Origin: Verrucomicrobiales bacterium
GTDB taxonomy: Bacteria; Verrucomicrobiota; Verrucomicrobiia; Limisphaerales; JACDHS01
DNA: 61,163 nt
Assembly: GCA_028293445.1 (NCBI GenBank)
Contig: JAQGOU010000251.1
Location: 1-61,163, forward strand
Reading direction: 5' to 3'
Each line of letters begins with the position of its first letter. The first letter of the stretch is position 1. A model generated the notes under the pieces. That model made no database searches. It saw nothing but the letters and a program-made list of their open reading frames with translations, and was not told the DNA's origin. This document shows, in pieces, positions 1 through 60,032 of the stretch. The position numbers were made by a program, and so were the translations under genes.

Positions 1-543
1 CTGAATCAATTGCGCATCGAGGTCTAAATAATAATCCAATCGACGATCTGTTTCCGCTAAATCGATGTCGCGCGCCATCATTAAAAACGTCGCGTAATGA
101 TTTCCCTCAGATTCTACCAAACTAGCGTAAAATAAGGCTAATTCGGGGTCTATCGGCTTCAATGCCTGAGCCAGGATCTGAAACTTCTCACAACTCCGGC
201 CTTCCACAAGTGCGAAAACCACCAAATGATCAATCACTTGCAAGCGCTGACCGTTGCGAATGGAGCGCATCAGGGCTGATATCCAGGGACTGGGATGGGG
301 TTGACCGAAGGGAATGCCGCGTTTCTCTAATAATTGCAGAACCAGTTCAAAATGTTGCAATTCCTCAATGGCAATCGCATTCAATTCACGCACACGGGGG
401 AAAAGATCACGATATTTCTCCAAATTCAGCGCGCTAGTCGCCGCTTTTCGTTCCAAATGGGCGTGATCGACGAGAATAGCCGGGATATTGGCCAGGACAG
501 TGGGCAACCAATCGGCCCGGGGCTTCGCACGCAACATTAACAT
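1..543 (-). CDS. miaE: MiaE-like tRNA-(ms2io6A37) hydroxylase (ferritin-like di-iron protein), N-terminal 181 codons; the 3' end lies beyond the left window edge
   Basis: Not in the ORF track because it has no stop in the window. My own translation from the ATG (complement of 541-543) stays open to position 1: MLMLRAKPRADWLPTVLANIPAILVDHAHLERKAATSALNLEKY..AIEELQHFELV..VIDHLVVFALVEGRSCEKFQILA..FYASLVESEGNHYATF. The DHxxxExKAA, EELxHF, EGRSCEKF and SEGxHY motifs match the MiaE family as I recall it. Confidence 0.7.
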   Translation of the reverse strand, partial: MLMLRAKPRADWLPTVLANIPAILVDHAHLERKAATSALNLEKYRDLFPRVRELNAIAIEELQHFELVLQLLEKRGIPFGQPHPSPWISALMRSIRNGQRLQVIDHLVVFALVEGRSCEKFQILAQALKPIDPELALFYASLVESEGNHYATFLMMARDIDLAETDRRLDYYLDLDAQLIQ

Positions 544-34528: not shown

Positions 34529-34750
34529 GGGAAGACTCTTTTCAATTTCAGGCGGCAAATCAAGAGCTGAGCAATGGCCACGTCCGTTGCGTCCGAACGG
34601 CTGAGAGCCTTGGGGAACGGGCAACTTCAAAGCTTGTTTGAGTATTTACCAAGGCATCGTGCTGGGAAGAGTTTCAGACCACCGTTACCGATAAAGGAGT
34701 TTTGGATGCCATTTTGAGCCCAATATCACGGCGGCCTCAAAAAGCCGCCT

Positions 34751-35143
34751 GTTTTTAGACTGGAAATCCCGTCAAAAAATTATTCGTCGGGATTTCCAGA
34801 GTGAAAATGGCGACAAAAAATTAAACCGGCACTTTTCCAGAGTGGAAATACCGTCGAAAAATTAAACCGCCTCATTTCCAGAGTGGAATTCCCGTCAAAA
34901 AATTATTTATCGGGATTTCCAGAGTGGAAATGACGGCAAAAAATTAAACGGGCACTTTTCCGGAGTGGAAATCCCGCCGAAAAATTAAATCGCCTCATTT
35001 CCAGAGTGGAATTCTCGTCGAAAAATTATTTATCCGGATTTCCAGAGTGGAAATGGCGACAAAAAATTAAATGGACACCTTTCCGGACTGGAATTTCCGA
35101 CAAAACATTTTTTATTTCCATTTCCGAAGTGAAATCGGGTGCG
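34751..35143. repeat. Tandem array 3: about 10 copies of a 41-bp unit (ATTTCCAGAGTGGAAAT + CG-flanked A-tract AAAAAATTAAA) with a 123-bp (3-unit) higher-order repeat
   Basis: CC anchors of TTTCCAGAG at 34796, 34837, 34878, 34919, 34960, 35001, 35042, 35083 and 35124, all exactly 41 bp apart. Three unit subtypes recur in the order C-A-B-C-A-B-C-A-B-C. Confidence 0.95.
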
Positions 35144-35434: not shown

Positions 35435-38092
35435 CTAATTATTCACATACGATAATTCCGTCCAGTTTCCACCATCCCAAATCAACGTCAGCGTATCACC
35501 CAGTCCCAACAGGCGCGACGCTGCACCAAGCTGGGTGTTGGCGCCGTCCGGTACAGTGACTGTGCCAGTAATATTGCCGCCTTGGAGAATCAAAATGCTG
35601 CCGGTAGCAGCGCCATTGGCAATCGCGGTCGTTGCGTTCAGAGTGACAGCCGTTGAACCGGAAAAGAGAACGTAACCGGTAGTGGGTGTCAGGGTAGCGG
35701 TATTGGTCGGAGACATCGAGGTGCGCGAGACGATCGGAAACCCATTGATAGTCACGTTGCCGGCGAAGGTTTCGGCGCCGTTATTCATGGCAACATTGGC
35801 GGAAAGGCGGCCATCGGCAATGGTTCCGATTAAATTAGTCGCGTTCAGATTAGTCAGACCGCCGGCGTTCCCGGTGAAATTGGTGCCCGTGATTCCGCCG
35901 GCACTGAAGCTGCCGCCCGCATCACGCTTTACAATTGTATTGGCCGTATTTGCGCTCGTCGCCGCATTGGCCGCGCTCGTGCCGCTCGCCACGTTCGCCG
36001 CAGTTTGTCCGCCCACGGTTGCAACCACTGTCGCTCCCTGCGTCCCGGTCACGTTACCACTGAGCGAACCGGTGAAATTGGCGGAGCTGACATTGGTCAA
36101 ACCGCTGCCATTACCGACGAAACTACCCGCCGTGAGAATTCCGCTAATGTTCAAGGTCGAGCCGGTGAAGTTGCCTTGCAAAGTGGCCGTGGTGGTTACT
36201 GTCGACAGCGTGTTGAACAATACCGTCATTGTGCTGTCATTATAATTGGCGCTGATTAAATCCACGTTGTTGTCGCCATTGACATCCGCAGCCAGGACTA
36301 AACGCGGGTCATCGCCGACGGTTGGTGAAGAGGCCAGCGTAAATCCGCCGACACCGTTGTTCGTAAACACAGAGAGCGTGTTCGCATTGGCGCCAATCAA
36401 GTCCACCTTGCCATCGCCGTTGACATCCGAGGCCGTGACCGGAGAACCCGCACTAAACGTGGAGTTCGATCCAAATGTGCCGCCACCATTGTTAGTCAGC
36501 ACCAGGACATTGTCGCCGAGATTGACACTGACCAAATCCATCTTGCCATCGCCGTTGACATCCGCGGTTGTGACCCAATTCGGGAAAGTCCCGATGACTG
36601 GAGAGGAATGAAGCACAAAGGTGCCAGTGCCAGTGCCAAACAATACTGAAAGGGTGTTGGAACCGTAATTCGAAGTGATCAAGTCAATTGTAGTATCTCC
36701 ATTGAGATCCGCCGCCGCCACGGAACTCGGGCTACTGCCGACAGTGGGCGAGGAGGCCAGCACAAAGATACCACCGCCTTTGTTGGTCAACACCGAGAGC
36801 GTGTTCGTGTTGCCATAGGAGCAGATTAAATCCATCTTGCTATCGCCATTCACATCCGCCGCTGTGACAGAATTGGGGAACGCCCCGACAGCCAGAGAGG
36901 AAGCTATCACAAATCCGCCGCTGCCGTTGTTGGTCAGCACGGAGAGCGTGGCAGCGTTGAAATTGGCACTGATCAAGTCCACCTTGCCATCGCCATTGAC
37001 ATCCGCCGCCGCGACCGAGTTCGCACCGGTGCCGACAGTTGGCGAGGATGCCAGCACAAATCCACCGCTCCCGTTATTCGTCAAGACCGAAAGCGTGTTG
37101 CCTGAAGCATTGCCAAAGTTTGCGCTGATCAAATCCACTTTGCCGTCCCCATTGACGTCCGCAGCTGCAGCCCAAACCGGACCAGTGCCGACGAGTGGCG
37201 CGGAGGCGATGGAAAAGCCCAATCCACCAACGGAGTTGGTGGTCAGAGTAATCGCATACGCAGGCAGAGCCGTCATCAGATTCACATTGGTCAGGCCTGC
37301 GCCGTTGCCGCTGAAATTTCCCGTGATTGTGCCCGCTGAGATGTTTCCAGATCCGTCGCGTTTCACAATCGTGCCGGGCGTGTTCGCGCTCGTCGCGGCG
37401 TTGGCTGCGCTCGCTCCGCTGGCCACATTCGCCGCGCTTTGTCCACCCACGGTCGACACCACAGTCGCTCCCTGCGTCCCGGTCACATTGCCAGCGAGCG
37501 AACCAGAGAAACTGGTGGCGGACGTCGCCGTGGTGGCGTTGCCGCTGATGTTGATATCTGCCGTGCCACTGGAAATGTTGCCTGCGTTCAAGGCAGTTAA
37601 TCCCGCGCCGTTGCCGGAAAACGAATTCGCCGTAACCGTCCCCGAAACATTCGGGCTGGCTGGCAGACTCGCATTGGCAATCGTCCCGCTCAACTGCGAC
37701 GCAGCCAATGTTCCCGTAAGAGTGGCGGCCGCGACCGCGTACGGCGTAGCGGTGATTTTCTGGCGTGGCGTCAGCGTCGTGAATCCGCCCGCGCCATTCG
37801 TCCGCACAGAAATTTCCAACCAACGGTCCGCTCCCGGAAAAGCGCCCACACCAAAATCCAAAGAAGCGGTGAAAAGGCCGTTCGTCACAGCAACCGCCGT
37901 GCTCGTGAGCGTGCCACCAATTTGGTTTCCGGCGCTGAGAGCATCCTGCAACGAAAATTGTAAGTCGTAGTTTCCGCTCGCTGCCGCGCCGTTGGCGTTT
38001 AACCGGCCTTGATAAGTAAACGCTGTTGTTTGGGCGTGGACAGTCCCGCAGAACAGAGATACGAGCAGGACCTGGAGGATTTTAGTTTTCAT
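35435..38092 (-). CDS. Secreted FG-GAP/VCBS repeat (integrin-alpha-like propeller) protein flanked by tail-fibre-like Gly/Ala/Thr-rich segments
   Basis: Signal peptide MKTKILQVLLVSLFCGTVHA, then FTYQGRLNANGAAASGNYDLQF. At least 7 repeats of A(A/T)DVNGD(G/S)K(V/M)DLI(S/C). Two about 70-aa segments, GNVTGTQGATVV.TVGGQ.AANVASG.SAANAATSANT..TIVKRD..G..SAG.ITG, lie before and after the propeller. Confidence 0.8.
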   Translation of the reverse strand: MKTKILQVLLVSLFCGTVHAQTTAFTYQGRLNANGAAASGNYDLQFSLQDALSAGNQIGGTLTSTAVAVTNGLFTASLDFGVGAFPGADRWLEISVRTNGAGGFTTLTPRQKITATPYAVAAATLTGTLAASQLSGTIANASLPASPNVSGTVTANSFSGNGAGLTALNAGNISSGTADINISGNATTATSATSFSGSLAGNVTGTQGATVVSTVGGQSAANVASGASAANAATSANTPGTIVKRDGSGNISAGTITGNFSGNGAGLTNVNLMTALPAYAITLTTNSVGGLGFSIASAPLVGTGPVWAAAADVNGDGKVDLISANFGNASGNTLSVLTNNGSGGFVLASSPTVGTGANSVAAADVNGDGKVDLISANFNAATLSVLTNNGSGGFVIASSLAVGAFPNSVTAADVNGDSKMDLICSYGNTNTLSVLTNKGGGIFVLASSPTVGSSPSSVAAADLNGDTTIDLITSNYGSNTLSVLFGTGTGTFVLHSSPVIGTFPNWVTTADVNGDGKMDLVSVNLGDNVLVLTNNGGGTFGSNSTFSAGSPVTASDVNGDGKVDLIGANANTLSVFTNNGVGGFTLASSPTVGDDPRLVLAADVNGDNNVDLISANYNDSTMTVLFNTLSTVTTTATLQGNFTGSTLNISGILTAGSFVGNGSGLTNVSSANFTGSLSGNVTGTQGATVVATVGGQTAANVASGTSAANAATSANTANTIVKRDAGGSFSAGGITGTNFTGNAGGLTNLNATNLIGTIADGRLSANVAMNNGAETFAGNVTINGFPIVSRTSMSPTNTATLTPTTGYVLFSGSTAVTLNATTAIANGAATGSILILQGGNITGTVTVPDGANTQLGAASRLLGLGDTLTLIWDGGNWTELSYVNN

Positions 38093-45325: not shown

Positions 45326-45420
45326 AAGCTTGCCTGAATCGAACGCTCGGATAGGGAGCGCGTCAGCCCGAAGTTCCGGAAGTTGCATCACGCTAAGGTC
45401 GTAGTTTCTATGACCGAAAA

Positions 45421-46028
45421 GGACGTACAACGCGTTGTACGTCCTAAACCTGCGGTTCGAAATCGGGGTACAACGGCTCTGGAGCAAAAAAGGACGATCG
45501 GAAAACAGGGTACAAGCCTCCTGGACCAATTTTCTATTCCCGGAAACTCCCGTACAAGCGTTGTACGCCCGTTTCCGGTTGTCGGAAACTACGGTACAAG
45601 CGTTGTACGCCAATTTTCCGGAATCCGAAATCGGGGTACAACGCGTTGTACGCCTCAAAACTGCTCCGGAAAATTCCGGTACAAGCATTTTCCAGGAAAT
45701 TTGGTTGTCCGGGAAGAGCGTACAAGCCTTGTACCCTCTTTCTGAACTCCCCGGAAGTGGGGTACAACGCGTTGTACGTCATTTTTCTTTCCAAAAGTTA
45801 TCCTTTTTCGTTGTACCCTCTTTTCCTGGCACGTAACTTCGGTCCATAAGGCTTGTACGGGAGTTCCGGACAACCGGAAAGTGGCGTACAACGCTTGCAC
45901 CCTCATTTCCCGGAAGAATTTTTCCTGGAAAATGCTTGTACCGGAATTTTCCGTGACGGATTTTTCACGTACTTCGCGTTGTACCCTGTTTTCCGACGCC
46001 AGATTTTCCGCGTACAACGCGTTGTACC
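45421..46028. repeat. Tandem array 4: about 15 copies of a ~42-bp unit (GTACAACGCGTTGTAC palindrome + TTTCCGG..CCGGAAA dyad)
   Basis: GTACAA (or inferred) anchors at 45425, 45468, 45510, 45552, 45594, 45636, 45679, 45720, 45762, ~45801, ~45843, 45886, ~45926, 45969 and 46012 (mean 41.9 bp). Perfect 24-bp palindrome GGACGTACAACGCGTTGTACGTCC at 45421-45444. Confidence 0.95.
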
Positions 46029-46273
46029 TTTTTGCAGGAGCTTGATTTGCTACGAGTTGCAGAGAAAAGCCCGGATTCCTTCGATGTTTTCCACGGAATG
46101 AATGTAACTCTCGCAGTCGCCGACGGGCAGCACGGCGGGACAGCGCTCCCCTCCCCAACCTTGCGTCCGACGGGAAAGGAGGAAGAGAAGCATGGTATTC
46201 CTGCTGGCTCTTCGTTGTAACGTTTTCTGTCAGTCTCGTGTCTGAAGCGAACAACGGATGCTATTTGAACTTT

Positions 46274-55648: not shown

Positions 55649-56143
55649 TTAGACAGGTTTGGCGAGATACGGCTGTAACGCAGCAACCATATCTTCTGGA
55701 GCGCGCTTTGGTTTTTCGTTGAGGCTCGTGCAGACATGCCACGTCTCCCCTTCGAGGAGCAACTTCCCGTCTTGATTCAGAATGCGGTAGCCAAAGTTAG
55801 CGCGGATTTTTCCAAGCTCAGTCAGCCAGGCTTCGATTGTCAGCAAATCATCGTAGCGCGCGGGCGCTTTATATTTCAGATGCACTTCGACGACCGGGAA
55901 AATCATGTCGGCCTGCTGAAGTTGCAACGCGGTCTTGCCGATCTTGCGCATAAACTCGCCGCGCGCTGCTTCGAGCAGGTCCAAATAACGAGCGTAATAG
56001 ATATGGTTGCCGACCGTGCATTCCGCGTAGGTGACGCGATGTTGGTATTGGAAAATCTCGTGCACACCCGAATTGTGTGTTTCGCCAAATGAAAGTCCAG
56101 AATTTCGTTGCGGAATAATTATTCTTATTCGTGAATTTCTCAT
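55649..56143 (-). CDS. Acyl-CoA thioesterase, YbgC/4HBT hot-dog fold
   Basis: HRVTYAECTVGNHIYYARYLDLLEAARGEFMR..G......QQADMIFPVVEVHLKYKAPARYDDLL. The N-terminal 35 aa are uncertain. Confidence 0.75.
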   Translation of the reverse strand: MRNSRIRIIIPQRNSGLSFGETHNSGVHEIFQYQHRVTYAECTVGNHIYYARYLDLLEAARGEFMRKIGKTALQLQQADMIFPVVEVHLKYKAPARYDDLLTIEAWLTELGKIRANFGYRILNQDGKLLLEGETWHVCTSLNEKPKRAPEDMVAALQPYLAKPV

Positions 56144-56262
56144 GTCCCTGCCACCCGACCGATTGGCAAGCTGGCGAACGGAGAAGGTCCCTTACTTTTA
56201 GTGATTGTGGAGGAAATTGAGCTGAATTTGCGTAAGCTGCTGGCTGACAGTCTTGTAAAAAC

Positions 56263-56775
56263 GTCTGGTAACGTTACCAGACCGGAATTCCAGCCTGACA
56301 TTGAGGGCTGGTAACGTTACCAGACGCTAAATCCACTCTGGAATTTCCGTCCGTAATATTACGGACGGTTTTTCCAGCCTGAAAATTGACCTTCTAACGT
56401 TAGAAGGTCGATTTTCAGGCTGACGGAGACGTCTGGTAACGTTAGAAGGGTCCAAATCCACTCTGGAATTTTGGTCGGGTAACGCTACCACCTCAATTTT
56501 ACGCTGAAAACGGGGTCCGTGGCGTAACTTGCGGAATTTCCATTCCGTAAACGGCGTCTGGTAACGTTACCAGACGCCAATGTGAGGCTGGAATTTCGGT
56601 CCGTAACGTTACCAGACGGTTTTTCAGGCTGGAATTTGACCCTTCTAACGTTACCAGGCCTCTTTTCAGGCTAACATTGGAGGCTGGTAACGTTAGAAGG
56701 TCTAAATTCCAGCCTGGAAATCCCGCCCGTACCGCTACCACATGCTTTTCCAGATTGAAAAAAGGGTCGTTACTG
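56263..56775. repeat. Tandem array 5: about 12-13 copies of a ~42-bp unit (CTGGTAACGTTACCAG-type palindrome + TTCCAG-C-CTGGAA-type dyad)
   Basis: AACGTT-type centres at 56270, 56313, 56355, 56396, 56438, 56481, 56526, 56563, 56605, 56647, 56689 and 56731. Perfect palindromes: GTCTGGTAACGTTACCAGAC (56263-56282), CCGTCCGTAATATTACGGACGG (56347-56368) and GACCTTCTAACGTTAGAAGGTC (56388-56409). Confidence 0.95.
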
Positions 56776-56932
56776 GCAAAAACTTTCTTTCGAAACTCGA
56801 AATCGTTCTGCGCGCCAAAAAACCTCCCGCGGCCTGAGTTCGCCCCTAAAGCGAGGACGGAATCATTACGTGAACGCTTATCCTTTATGTCTCGCGGTTG
56901 CGCCTCGCGGAAATTGAGCTATCTTAGCGCCT

Positions 56933-57136
56933 GTGGATTCTCAAACATGGCAGGAAGTGGTGGCGTTGAGCATAGTTGCGCTCGCTGCATCGCTTTTGCT
57001 TTGGGGAAAATTTCGGAAACGGAAGTATAAGTTACCTTGTGACACAAATTGCGGCTGCTCTGGGTCGAGTCAAAAGGGGTTCGTTCTGCAAGGACGTCGC
57101 GGTGAACCGCCTCGGCTTAGTGTTAAGATGAAATAA
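56933..57136 (+). CDS. Possible small Cys-rich membrane protein (FeoB-associated Cys-rich/p12-like architecture)
   Basis: GTG start; one TM helix, VVALSIVALAASLLLWG, then basic residues and CDTNCGCSGS. It is short and its family resemblance is only architectural, so this is a weak call. Confidence 0.35.
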   Translation: MDSQTWQEVVALSIVALAASLLLWGKFRKRKYKLPCDTNCGCSGSSQKGFVLQGRRGEPPRLSVKMK

Positions 57137-57182
57137 GTTTCTTGCAGAATGGCGGTCGGTAAAATAATTTTAAATTAAGCCC

Positions 57183-57590
57183 ATGTGTAAAGTTAACTCG
57201 GCACTGCATTTTCAGAAACGACCTCACGGCCATAGTAGTAAAGATTCCGACGCCCACTGGGTACCTAACACAGATGTTTACTCCGCCGAGACCGGGCTGG
57301 TGATTAAAGTCGAACTCGCAGGAATGCGTCGGGAAGACCTGGAACTCACCATCGAAGAGAATCGTTTACGCATCAGCGGTCAGCGTCCGGACGGTTGCCG
57401 CGCGCCGAAGTGCAAATTTTTGGTGATGGAAATTAATTACGGTTTCTTCGAAAGCGTCATCGAACTTCCCGAGGGCTATGACCTCTCTCAGGCGAAAGCA
57501 GCGTATCAGAACGGATTTCTCCGCATTGACGTTCCGGTCATTTCGCGGCAGTCTGCGAAAAAACTTGCGGTGAAGATTACGGACGCATGA
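57183..57590 (+). CDS. Hsp20/alpha-crystallin small heat-shock protein
   Basis: WVPNTDVYSAETGLVIKVELAGMRREDLELTIEENRLRISGQR..FESVIELPEGYDLSQAKAAYQNGFLRIDVP. Confidence 0.9.
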   Translation: MCKVNSALHFQKRPHGHSSKDSDAHWVPNTDVYSAETGLVIKVELAGMRREDLELTIEENRLRISGQRPDGCRAPKCKFLVMEINYGFFESVIELPEGYDLSQAKAAYQNGFLRIDVPVISRQSAKKLAVKITDA

Positions 57591-57629: not shown

Positions 57630-60032
57630 ATGATGACGTCGCCTGATACTGAATTTATCGACATTCTCCGGAGCACCGGGGAAGCCGACCCTGCACCAAC
57701 CGGAACCAAGATCTGGTCCAAATCGCTTCCCGAGAGCCTTCCGATCCTCGGCCTTTCCGACATTGTTATCTTTCCCGGGATGATTGTTCCGCTGCTCGTG
57801 GATACGCAGCAAAGCACACGACTCATCGACGATGTCGTCGCGGGTAATCGCTTCATCGGATTGATCCTCCAAAAAAAAGCTGAGGTCGAGAACCCGGCTC
57901 CGGATGATTTGTGGAATCACGGCTGCGCGGGCCGCGTGTTAAAGATGTTGAAATTTCCGGACAACACCGTGCGCGTGTTGGTGGAAGGGCTCCGTCGTTT
58001 CCGTGTGCGCGAATACACTTCGAAAGATCCATATCTGCAGGCGAAAGTGGAGGTGCTTAAAGATTCGATCGAAGACTCGCTCGAGATCACAGCCCTCGCG
58101 CGCAAGGCGGCAACTCTTTTTCAGGAAATCGTCAAGCTCTCCCCTACTCTCTCGGAACAGATCAAGGTGGCGGCATTGAATACAGAGGAGCCGGGAAAAC
58201 TTACCGACCTCATCGCAGCCAATCTTAATCTCTCACTGCAGGAACGGCAGCATCTGCTCGAATCTCATATCGTCAAGGATCGCCTCGTGCGCCTGCTGCC
58301 TCTGCTCAGCCGCGAAGTCGAACTGCTGACTCTCGGCTCAAAGATTCAAAGCGAAGTCGTGACATCGATGTCGAAGTCGCAGCGTGATTTTTTCCTGCGG
58401 GAACAAATCCGCGCCATCCAACGGGAACTCGGCGATGGGGATGCAGGCGCCGCCGAAGCCGGAGAATTGCGCGAGTTGGTGGAGAAAAACAAACTTCCCG
58501 AGGAAGCCAAAAAAGTCGCGTTGAAAGAGATTGAGCGACTGGAACAGATGTCGCCGGCGGTCGCGGAATACACGATCACCCGCAATTATCTCGATTGGCT
58601 GGTCAATCTTCCCTGGAATAAGTTCACGGAAGATAAAATCGATTTGCGCGCCTCGGAGCGGGTCCTGAATGAACAGCATTTTGGCCTGAGCAAGGTGAAG
58701 GATCGGTTGCTGGAATTTCTTGCGGTCATCAAGTTGAGAAACGAAATCAAAGGGCCGATCCTCTGCCTCGTGGGTCCTCCAGGAGTCGGGAAAACGTCAC
58801 TCGGAAAAAGTGTCGCCGATGCGTTGGGACGAAAGTTTGCGCGCATCTCTCTCGGCGGTATGCGCGATGAAGCAGAAATTCGAGGCCATCGCCGCACCTA
58901 CGTGGGCGCTTTGCCCGGACGCATCATTCAAACGCTGCGCCGTGTCGACAGCCGCAATCCCGTGATCCTGCTCGATGAAATTGACAAGGTCGGTTCAGAT
59001 TTTCGCGGCGATCCCTCTTCGGCTTTGCTGGAGGTTTTGGATCCCGCGCAGAACCACACGTTTAGCGATCATTATCTCGACGTGCCGTTTGATCTTTCGC
59101 GGGTCTTGTTCATCACGACCGCCAATTGGCTCGACCCGATTCATGTTGCCTTGCGCGATCGCCTCGAAGTGATCGAATTGCCGAGTTATACTGCTGTCGA
59201 AAAACTTCAGATCGCCAAACTTCATTTAGTGCCGCGTCAACTGGAAGAACATGGTCTCAAGAAGAAGCTGGTGAAGTTCCCGGACACCACGTTGCGTAAA
59301 GTCATTGAAGATTACACGCGCGAAGCCGGCGTGCGCCAACTCGAACGGGAGATTGCTGCGCTCACCCGCAAAGCCGCGCGGAAAATCATCAACCGGAAGA
59401 ACCACGAGACACTCGTGATCAAGCCGGAGAACCTAAAAGAGCTTCTTGGACCGCGCCGGTTTTTCCCCGAAGTTGCCGAAGCCATCCGCGAGCCGGGAAT
59501 TTCCATTGGCCTGGCCTGGACACCGGTCGGCGGCGAAATTCTTTTTATCGAAGCCACGCGCATGGCTGGCAAAGGCCAACTGATCCTCACCGGCTCACTT
59601 GGCGATGTCATGAAAGAAAGCGCCCACGCCGCGCTGAGTTATTTGCGGAGCCAGGCACAGTTCCTGAACATTGATCTCACGGACTACGATAAGTTTGACA
59701 TTCACATTCACGTCCCGTCCGGCGCGACGCCCAAAGATGGCCCGAGCGCTGGCGCATCGATTGTGGTCGCTCTGGCTTCTCTACTCAGCCATCGGGTGGT
59801 TCGTTCGGACACGGCGATGACCGGCGAGATCAGTTTGCGAGGCCGCGTGCTCCGCATTGGCGGCGTAAAAGAAAAGGTTATGGCCGCCGCGCGAACCGGC
59901 CTGAAGCAGGTCATTTTGCCAGAAGAAAATCGACCCGACTGGGAAGAAGTTCCTCTCGAAGTCCGCCGCAAAATGAAAGTTCACTTTGTCCGTCAGATTT
60001 CTGAACTCATTCCTCTGGCCCTTACGAAATGA
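57630..60032 (+). CDS. lon: ATP-dependent Lon protease
   Basis: LON N-domain (LPILGLSDIVIFPGMIVPLLV), Walker A GPPGVGKTSLGKS, ILLDEIDK, and the protease Ser in PKDGPSAGASIVVAL. Confidence 0.95.
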   Translation: MMTSPDTEFIDILRSTGEADPAPTGTKIWSKSLPESLPILGLSDIVIFPGMIVPLLVDTQQSTRLIDDVVAGNRFIGLILQKKAEVENPAPDDLWNHGCAGRVLKMLKFPDNTVRVLVEGLRRFRVREYTSKDPYLQAKVEVLKDSIEDSLEITALARKAATLFQEIVKLSPTLSEQIKVAALNTEEPGKLTDLIAANLNLSLQERQHLLESHIVKDRLVRLLPLLSREVELLTLGSKIQSEVVTSMSKSQRDFFLREQIRAIQRELGDGDAGAAEAGELRELVEKNKLPEEAKKVALKEIERLEQMSPAVAEYTITRNYLDWLVNLPWNKFTEDKIDLRASERVLNEQHFGLSKVKDRLLEFLAVIKLRNEIKGPILCLVGPPGVGKTSLGKSVADALGRKFARISLGGMRDEAEIRGHRRTYVGALPGRIIQTLRRVDSRNPVILLDEIDKVGSDFRGDPSSALLEVLDPAQNHTFSDHYLDVPFDLSRVLFITTANWLDPIHVALRDRLEVIELPSYTAVEKLQIAKLHLVPRQLEEHGLKKKLVKFPDTTLRKVIEDYTREAGVRQLEREIAALTRKAARKIINRKNHETLVIKPENLKELLGPRRFFPEVAEAIREPGISIGLAWTPVGGEILFIEATRMAGKGQLILTGSLGDVMKESAHAALSYLRSQAQFLNIDLTDYDKFDIHIHVPSGATPKDGPSAGASIVVALASLLSHRVVRSDTAMTGEISLRGRVLRIGGVKEKVMAAARTGLKQVILPEENRPDWEEVPLEVRRKMKVHFVRQISELIPLALTK

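Follow-up and report, generated by a model that had tools for sequence, protein, structure and literature searches.

Between minus-strand genes for a 4HBT thioesterase, MFS transporter, EEP-family protein and FAD oxidoreductase, and plus-strand genes for HSP20, Lon and a LolA-like protein, lies an array of short palindromes, here designated array 5. Its palindromes carry different arms around a nearly constant core. Is dyad symmetry itself maintained at this locus, as a preliminary description of the DNA proposed, or does it follow from the way in which the array grows? We analyzed the window, i.e., the whole stretch of 61,163 nucleotides, together with syntenic relatives, contigs of the same soil metagenome and genomes of other phyla. 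The Pfam assignments of the flanking genes agree with those made earlier from the sequence.

Array 5 is non-coding, intergenic, and chromosomal. Rfam covariance models gave no match at the gathering score over the whole window, and a tRNA search found none. Each unit consists of two dyads about 21 bp apart: dyad A, formed by the TAACGTTA core and its arms, and dyad B, a TTCCAG-N-CTGGAA-like sequence (Table 1). TAACGTTA occurs eight times in the window, always within array 5, whereas 0.26 occurrences are expected and none of 100 shuffles reaches eight. The three perfect palindromes claimed in the preliminary description are found exactly at their positions in units 1, 3, and 4. The core of unit 3 is also altered symmetrically (TAAT/ATTA), and the symmetry of unit 4 reaches 48 bp (56375-56422, 96%). 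The hybrid units are likewise present (CTGGTAACGTTAGAAG at 56433 and 56684, CCGTAACGTTACCAG at 56600), as is the second element of the TTCCAG-C-CTGGAA type, perfect in one copy.

Three arm types can be distinguished: a (CGTCTGG), c (CCGTCCG), and b (GACCTTC). The sole difference between arms a and c is TG in the former and C in the latter, with CA and G in the mirrored half, so that the arms can be said to have changed completely for type b but not for a versus c. The left arms follow a strict a-c-b rotation, and the right arms are variable. Five units are symmetric, four are hybrid, and three are degenerate; units 1, 2, and 8 are near-copies.

The array has higher-order periods of 125 bp (three units) and 251 bp (six units). 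The autocorrelation is 0.45 at 125 bp and 0.52 at 250 bp, compared with 0.39 at 42 bp, and the repeat spacings are 125, 125, and 126 bp for D1 and 251 bp for D3. Blocks 1+2 and 3+4 form a 251-bp duplication, in which units 2-7 correspond to units 8-13. The symmetric units 3 (c/c) and 4 (b/b) of the first copy have hybrid counterparts in the second (c/a and b/a). Hence the palindromes reported as successive units, though correctly positioned, are not independent, given the 125/251-bp higher-order repeat, the fixed a-c-b rotation, and the near-copies.

Table 1. Positions of array 5, its parts and neighboring genes, and of related arrays in the window and in two relatives.
Feature	Position	Strand	Description
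Array 1 with leader	724-1090 (array 759-1086)	+	8 units of 41 bp: CCCAATATTATTATTGGG + TTTTAGCTTCTAAAT
Array 3	34757-35109	.	41-bp units, 123-bp higher-order period, dyad B ATTTCCAGAGTGGAAAT
Array 4	45417-46030	.	about 15 degenerate 42-bp units: GTACAACGCGTTGTAC + TTTCCGG-N-CCGGAAA
4HBT thioesterase	55649-56066	-	start probably near 56066, not the ATG at 56143
Array 5 leader	56224-56258	+	GAATTTGCGTAAGCTGCTGGCTGACAGTCTTG
Array 5	56261-56775	.	12 units, each 41-43 bp
Dyad A centers, units 1-6	after 56272, 56315, 56357, 56398, 56440, 56483		
Dyad A centers, units 7-12	after 56524, 56565, 56607, 56649, 56691, 56734		
Arms left/right, units 1-6			a/a, a/a, c/c, b/b, a/b, c'/d
Arms left/right, units 7-12			degenerate, a/a, c/a, b/a, a/b, c''/d
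Unit 1	56263-56282	.	GTCTGG-TAACGTTA-CCAGAC, perfect 20-bp palindrome, type a arms on both sides
Unit 3	56347-56368	.	CCGTCCG-TAATATTA-CGGACGG, perfect 22-bp palindrome, type c arms on both sides
Unit 4	56388-56409	.	GACCTTC-TAACGTTA-GAAGGTC, perfect 22-bp palindrome, type b arms on both sides
Unit 5, hybrid a/b	56433-56448	.	CTGGTAACGTTAGAAG
Remaining hybrids	centers 56607, 56649, 56691		unit 9 (c/a), unit 10 (b/a), unit 11 (a/b)
Best dyad B copy	56707-56719	.	TTCCAGCCTGGAA, perfect
Higher-order repeat	56304-56805	.	four 125-126-bp blocks from about 56304, 56429, 56554, 56680
Promoter-like block	56868-56932	+	TTGCGCC...GAAAT...TATCTTA; aligned with L107, L108, L109
Small Cys-rich membrane ORF	56933-57136	+	precedes hsp20 in all relatives; called as a gene in L128
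hsp20	57183-57590	+	Pfam
lon	57630-60032	+	Pfam
Array in relative L109	15217-15605		41/123-bp period; GCGAATATTCGC
Array in relative L132	9808-10230		42-bp period; CCTCATACG/CGTATGAGG and CCTCATACC/GGTATGAGG

The palindromes of array 5 were at first taken for textbook covariation. The evidence for this within the array is weak: when the right-arm types are shuffled among the units, 2.8-3.7 symmetric units are expected against the 5 observed (P = 0.08-0.27). A column-wise count over the 12 aligned dyads gives 71.4% paired cells versus 64.5% after shuffling (reached by 2 of 500 shuffles), and the covariation score is 0.262 versus 0.189 (reached by 9 of 500), with a shuffle control known to be inflated by related rows such as the near-copies 1, 2, and 8. 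Since the units are related by duplication, this modest excess is inflated. Column conservation in dyad A is highest at the central TAACGTTA and lowest in the arms. The would-be loop (ACGT in the core) is therefore conserved and the stem variable, the opposite of what a structure-only model predicts. Dyad B, the alternating second element, is not independent evidence, because one dyad per period automatically yields a second dyad half a period away.

Template switching within quasi-palindromes perfects imperfect inverted repeats in one step (PMC7202029, PMC8604942). Because it can produce mirrored arm changes of this kind, such changes do not prove selection, and the symmetry of array 5 could arise through mutation alone. 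The preliminary description stated that symmetry would be no more than a by-product if hybrid units proved as frequent as symmetric ones genome-wide; in array 5 the numbers are nearly equal, four and five, in a small sample.

A different picture is obtained when arrays are compared with each other. One genome per species was scanned for three TAACGTTA cores at 40-44-bp spacing, which gave 105 stretches in many phyla. Many of these were simple repeats or arrays with a 21-bp period, and their removal left 36 arrays of four or more cores. Within the 36 arrays, arm matches between units number 701, versus 711 after permutation (P = 0.92). Contrarily, among 34 distinct TAACGTTA arrays of other genomes, the consensus arms are complementary at 53% of positions within their own array versus 32% when arms are swapped, and none of 5000 arm-swap shuffles reaches the observed value. 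This complementarity between arrays declines away from the core. Thus, "same symmetry, different sequence" is a property between arrays and not within them. The idea that symmetry is kept rather than a particular sequence finds partial support at the former level, but none within array 5 or within the 36 arrays. The palindromes are real, but they were over-read. A few perfect palindromes inside one higher-order repeat should not be regarded as evidence of covariation.

Similar 42-bp arrays with two dyads are found in Tannerellaceae, Pirellulaceae, and Chthoniobacter, and some of these other genomes have several array loci with common flanking sequence. A 21-bp period is also found in 11 of 37 unrelated arrays at the fetched loci, which were not picked by the search pattern. 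Offsets of 125/126 bp in the core-spacing scan were rejected as a superperiod, being an artefact of non-overlapping match reporting. A leader common to phyla was also rejected: sequence beside the arrays is mildly enriched for the k-mers CATAAGC and GCAAGCT, but their positions are inconsistent except in single-genome families. Viral contigs scanned for three TAACGTTA copies gave three unrelated matches (coding or of another period), and a protein search for other arrays with an 80-aa ORF read through the array gave none.

Array 5 has relatives nearby. The window contains three more arrays built in this way, and L109 and L132 have one each. The palindrome differs by array (for example CCAATATT/AATATTGG in array 1 and GTACAACG/CGTTGTAC in array 4, some units of which retain only half a dyad), which supports dyad symmetry with differing sequences as a recurring trait of these arrays. 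Dyad B does not vary in arrays 1 and 3 or between further copies of the A1 type. The three-unit higher-order period recurs in arrays 3 and 5 and in the L109 array and is absent in the arrays of other phyla; the autocorrelation is 0.88 at lag 123 versus 0.72 at lag 41 in array 3, and 0.82 at the three-unit period versus 0.67 at the single unit in the L109 array. The L132 array was considered as an ortholog of array 3 and rejected, as the flanking small proteins are dissimilar.

A leader of about 30 nt, TGAAT-N-TGCRTAAG...CAG, precedes arrays 1 (window position 724) and 5 and is found in reversed orientation at the L109 array. At all three it lies 43 nt from the first dyad center (nhmmer E = 5e-8 to 1e-7). 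In array 5, TGCGTAAG of the leader begins 43 nt before that center, and the leader is thus in register with the array. Variants of the leader lie next to the L132 array, next to another locus of the A5 type, and next to one of the A4 type. An exact-pattern search did not find the leader outside this lineage. Metagenome contigs scanned for TGAATNTGCGTAAGYTGCTG gave 15 matches, about the number expected by chance, none of them beside an array; a tRNA-like sequence beside one match was not found to be a tRNA by ARAGORN. All four leaders with known flanks point toward the 5' end of a gene about 125-180 bp off whose transcription runs away from the array, an orientation that is informative in two of the four cases and not significant.

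The family appears to be dispersed. A1-type units have a depth of about 12-16 times single copy in the Logan contigs of this metagenome and occur on several contigs with unique flanks, these copy numbers being derived from unlinked short contigs and not from the genome itself. A3-, A4-, and A5-type units recur at other loci there as well, and the contigs on which unit types recur are similar in depth. At the second A5-type locus the first two units are a/a and b/a; the arm types of array 5 thus recur elsewhere, and hybrids with them. The ends of the arrays were also inspected. Terminal inverted repeats were not found, and the leader motif is on one side only, with no reverse-complement copy found (at most two mismatches; nhmmer). 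A 12-bp direct repeat, GGAAATTGAGCT (56212 and 56909), flanks array 5 only and was rejected as a target-site duplication: its right copy lies within ancestral sequence common to the relatives, so that simple duplication does not account for the pair. No target-site duplication is present at array 1 or at the L109 array. Restriction-site avoidance was likewise rejected, AACGTT being not depleted outside the arrays (27 versus 28.9 expected).

The source names of the Lon homologues are Verrucomicrobiota or Limisphaerales, and the host of array 5 is a soil member of the Verrucomicrobiota close to Limisphaerales. In the two closest syntenic relatives, L107 and L108, whose Lon proteins are 89% and 88% identical, the order FAD-EEP-MFS-4HBT followed by HSP20-Lon is kept, and their 4HBT/HSP20 intergenic regions (531 and 414 bp) contain no array. 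More distant relatives (Lon 79%) keep 4HBT, the small ORF, HSP20, and Lon in this arrangement. L128 and L130, which share the gene order, have intergenic regions that could not accommodate an array of this size, and tandem repeats were not found in L128, L129, or L130. The promoter-like block and the small ORF are conserved in all these relatives. The thioesterase start near 56066 is probable from the length of the relatives' proteins (138-150 aa).

Since relatives with the same gene order lack it, array 5 is a lineage-specific and recent gain at this locus and not a conserved control element of hsp20/lon. A link to the regulation of these genes had been suggested earlier, with the array as part of the heat-shock promoter region or as its insulator. 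A position with the thioesterase operon on one side and the small ORF, hsp20, and lon on the other would suit such a role. However, besides its absence in the relatives, the conserved promoter-like block lies intact about 100-150 bp downstream, outside the array, and arrays of the same design lie beside unrelated genes. By comparison with the relatives, the heat-shock reading is largely refuted, and we consider it highly improbable; any effect of array 5 on neighboring genes would be secondary.

The surroundings were also searched for associated enzymes. The 38 ORFs scanned with Pfam across the window are housekeeping or PVC-typical genes. No cas genes or transposases are found among them or in the relatives' loci, and the window contains no rep or par genes or linked regulators. 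In a total of about 250 kb (the window plus about 190 kb from relatives), no RAYT, transposase, or other candidate enzyme was found.

Among known repeat classes, the array family comes closest to REP/BIME and NIME mosaics and to minisatellites borne by MITEs, and descriptively to "false CRISPR" tandem repeats. REP superfamilies include GTAG- and CGTC-tagged ones, and Opitutus terrae is reported as a REP-rich genome of the Verrucomicrobia (PMC3733652). Like REPs and BIMEs, the elements described here are short extragenic palindromes, apparently dispersed and multi-copy, that form clusters of alternating orientation joined by short linkers and differ from one related genome to another. Their dyads (20-22 bp, intergenic) fall within the size range of REPs (20-40 nt extragenic palindromes), and arms a and c start with CGTC and end with GACG. 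In contrast to the unpaired GTAG or CGTC tag at one end of a REP, however, CGTC is paired here at both ends; type b arms lack it, and GTAG is confined to the reverse strand of units 6 and 12. The stem starts also are not A/T, each array has its own palindrome, and a RAYT was seen neither in the window nor in about 190 kb of the relatives' sequence. The strict 41-42-bp period, the three-unit higher-order repeats, and the leader are features of the present arrays and not of REPs or BIMEs.

Neisseria NIMEs with dRS3 are described as CGTC-1 REPs in large clusters. They too are intergenic mosaics, made up of a short palindrome (ATTCCC-N8-GGGAAT) and other repeat units in alternation, and dyad B ATTTCCAGAGTGGAAAT presumably resembles the dRS3 palindrome in form. 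However, NIME units are 50-150 bp long and irregular, and dRS3 is a phage integration target, neither of which is seen here. Plasmid iterons and centromere arrays are phased at about two or four helical turns and, as here, could allow for cooperative protein binding, whereas the present arrays are chromosomal, lie at many loci, differ in sequence, and have no linked rep or par gene. Resemblances to CIRCE, CtsR boxes, sigma-54 and ECF promoters, IHF, KorB and Noc sites, and the IS5 end were rejected, as none of these appears to fit in spacing or sequence.

BrickBuilt, a minisatellite-in-MITE element of Porphyromonas gingivalis, is also intergenic and multi-copy, combines a tandem array with a conserved leader, and disrupts short-read assemblies as the present arrays do (PMC4596501). 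Its 23-nt unit is non-palindromic, however, and its leader and tail have IS5-like inverted ends (PMC4596501), whereas no tail or inverted end was found here. "False CRISPR" tandem repeats share the repeat-spacer appearance, the lack of spacer diversity, and the lack of cas genes, but form a catch-all class with no proposed mechanism (PMC5294841). The array family is thus a clean member of none of the REP/BIME, NIME, BrickBuilt, and "false CRISPR" classes, and a prior description of it was not found in the literature searched.

Among the alternatives, the array may be a protein-binding platform, in which dimeric proteins would bind the TAACGTTA core and/or dyad B, symmetry would be selected, and sites spaced by 21 bp on one helix face would permit cooperative binding or spreading from the leader, in possible analogy to iteron or centromere arrays, MetJ-type tandem operators, or nucleoid or insulator sites. 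Such a platform agrees with a core more conserved than the arms, with the invariant dyad B of arrays 1, 3, and the other A1-type copies, with a 21/42-bp phasing favored even in arrays outside the search pattern, with a leader in register, and with the complementarity of own-array arms seen between arrays. But a palindrome that differs in each array would require many cognate proteins, close relatives lack the array at the same locus, no par, rep, or regulator gene is linked, and hybrid units are common. On balance we consider a platform rather unlikely. A role at the RNA level, with transcribed hairpins serving as bidirectional terminators, mRNA stabilizers, or a processed small-RNA array, is less likely than protein binding and must be called doubtful. 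Units 1 and 3 do score as terminators (hairpin plus T-run), A-runs and T-runs often flank dyad A, the folding energy is far below that of shuffles (z = -18.6 and -18.9), and REPs elsewhere are reported to be often transcribed (PMC3733652). Yet terminator-like sites are not enriched (4, two of them on dyad A, versus 2.5 +/- 1.6 in shuffles), the two strands fold equally well without a strand signal, and the fold is mostly inter-unit pairing, as in any self-complementary repeat. The conserved would-be loop and variable would-be stem also speak against it, and arrays 5 and L109 lie between divergent genes, where a terminator is not needed.

The regular spacing, the palindromic repeat, and the conserved leader at one end recall a CRISPR-like or TIGR-like guide array. 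Its "spacers", however, are not diverse and are themselves repeated palindromes, three unit types rotate, the period is 42 bp with a dyad B of just about 15 nt, and cas or tas-like genes are absent among the 38 ORFs, so that we give this idea almost no weight. It should also be asked whether the middle of the array, hybrids included, is an assembly chimera of similar loci. The stretches 55900-56460 and 56713-57300 are identical in the independently assembled Logan contigs of this metagenome, no identical contig covers 56460-56713 (units 6-11), and similar units are found at another locus; but hybrid unit 5 lies inside a zero-difference contig, and the 251-bp higher-order structure is coherent. 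We consider a chimera very unlikely.

We put at slightly better than even the chance that array 5 is a dispersed, mosaic, REP/BIME-like array from a lineage-specific, leader-associated family of short palindromic modules. Its building block would be a half-unit of about 21 bp, placed head-to-head and tail-to-tail to give two dyads per 42-bp period. The array grew as blocks were duplicated, first of 42, then of 125 and 251 bp, and exchange of half-units during growth would have given the hybrid units. Perfect palindromes are probably inherited from a founding palindrome, multiplied by unit duplication, or, as we infer, made by template switching or gene conversion within quasi-palindromes. The family would spread to new intergenic sites, with the leader probably as one terminus. 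Growth by block duplication, mosaicism, and the recent gain at this locus are themselves observed directly, and the recurrence of unit types on several contigs points to dispersal.

The strict 41-42-bp (four-turn) period, the 21-bp dyad spacing, and the three-unit block go beyond a purely selfish or neutral model and hint at a structural or protein-binding constraint. Sequence-specific recognition is suggested by how strongly TAACGTTA is conserved in array 5 and, in arrays 1 and 3, dyad B. These features together keep the protein-binding model alive. On another reading, which seems to us improbable, Limisphaerales-like Verrucomicrobiota would have an undescribed leader-directed system, where the conserved leader TGAAT-TGCRTAAG would nucleate an array builder with a 42-bp ruler or a spreading dimeric protein, dyad symmetry would be selected, and the three-unit (123-125 bp) block would be functional. 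A dimeric protein of this kind would spread over dyads phased every two helical turns.

Arrays of this type disrupt assembly from short reads and may be misread as CRISPRs or as regulatory sites. If the family is as it appears, about 3.5% of the window consists of rapidly turning-over palindromic arrays with an unusually strict 41-42-bp period, three-unit repeats, and a common leader. If true, the mosaic-repeat class of REPs, BIMEs, and NIMEs would be extended to a poorly studied soil phylum, and these arrays would offer a tractable case for distinguishing perfect palindromes kept by selection from those made by template-switch mutation.

Leader, array 5 (palindromic units of 41–43 bp) and the sequence beyond the array are bracketed by two copies of the direct repeat GGAAATTGAGCT (see the table). 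A simple target-site duplication around array 5 was rejected as the origin of these copies, since the right one lies within a conserved promoter-like block. This block is found 5′ of a small ORF, and both the block and the ORF are conserved in relatives (L107, L108, L109, and L128). The product of the small ORF is a Cys-rich membrane peptide with one helix and a CDTNCGCSGS motif. On the other side of the array, the longest thioesterase ORF is probably over-extended at its start. The thioesterases of relatives are 138–150 aa long, and the alignment with them places the likely start at a GTG near 56066.

Features in the window and in a relative (L133)
Feature	Position	Strand	Remarks
Terminator-like hairpin GGCGGCCTCAAAAAGCCGCC, then TGTTTTT	34713-34745	+	immediately 5′ of array 3
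147-bp tandem repeat	36750-37099		2.4 copies, 73% matches; within FG-GAP/dockerin gene 35435-38092
Longest thioesterase ORF	55649-56143	-	164 aa, ATG at 56143
12-bp direct repeat GGAAATTGAGCT	56212-56223 and 56909-56920
Small ORF	56933-57136	+	precedes hsp20
42-bp tandem repeat	L133:4565-4674		2.6 copies; within called 104-aa ORF beside fumC

Logan contigs, an independent assembly of the same soil metagenome, contain joined forms of the array 3 type missing exactly 123 bp (window 34983–35107) and of the array 4 type missing exactly 42 bp (window 45551–45594). These skipping forms come from loci elsewhere, or else the arrays vary in copy number. The tetranucleotide GTAC is rare in the window outside the arrays (27 observed versus 91 expected from a Markov model, an approximately 3.4-fold deficit). 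Array 4 (45417–46030) alone holds 24 of the 51 copies in the window, each of its GTACAACGCGTTGTAC units giving two.

The 147-bp repeat is presumably a coding domain repeat, and the 42-bp repeat at L133 may not belong to the array-5 family but encode a 14-aa repeat. In the Bacteroidota, an individual genome can have 42-bp TAACGTTA arrays with the same family of units at several loci: L022, L068, L081, and L094 in the Tannerellaceae MAG Pc512_bin80, and L026, L059, and L072 in a Chitinophagaceae MAG, where the three loci have approximately 76 nt of flanking sequence in common. The Spartobacteria MAG Umea_bin-08385 carries 21-bp GGACGGCGGAGTAACGTTATT arrays at several loci (L002, L011, L032, L048, and L054), preceded by a common leader, GGGCTACAGAGGGGCTTCTCTGAGGAAAAGAGG; at L048, a second 21-bp array, TTGGACGACCCCGCCAAGTTT, follows the GGACGGCGGAGTAACGTTATT array. 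The 21-bp arrays of Umea_bin-08385 are a further leader-plus-array family in Verrucomicrobiota.
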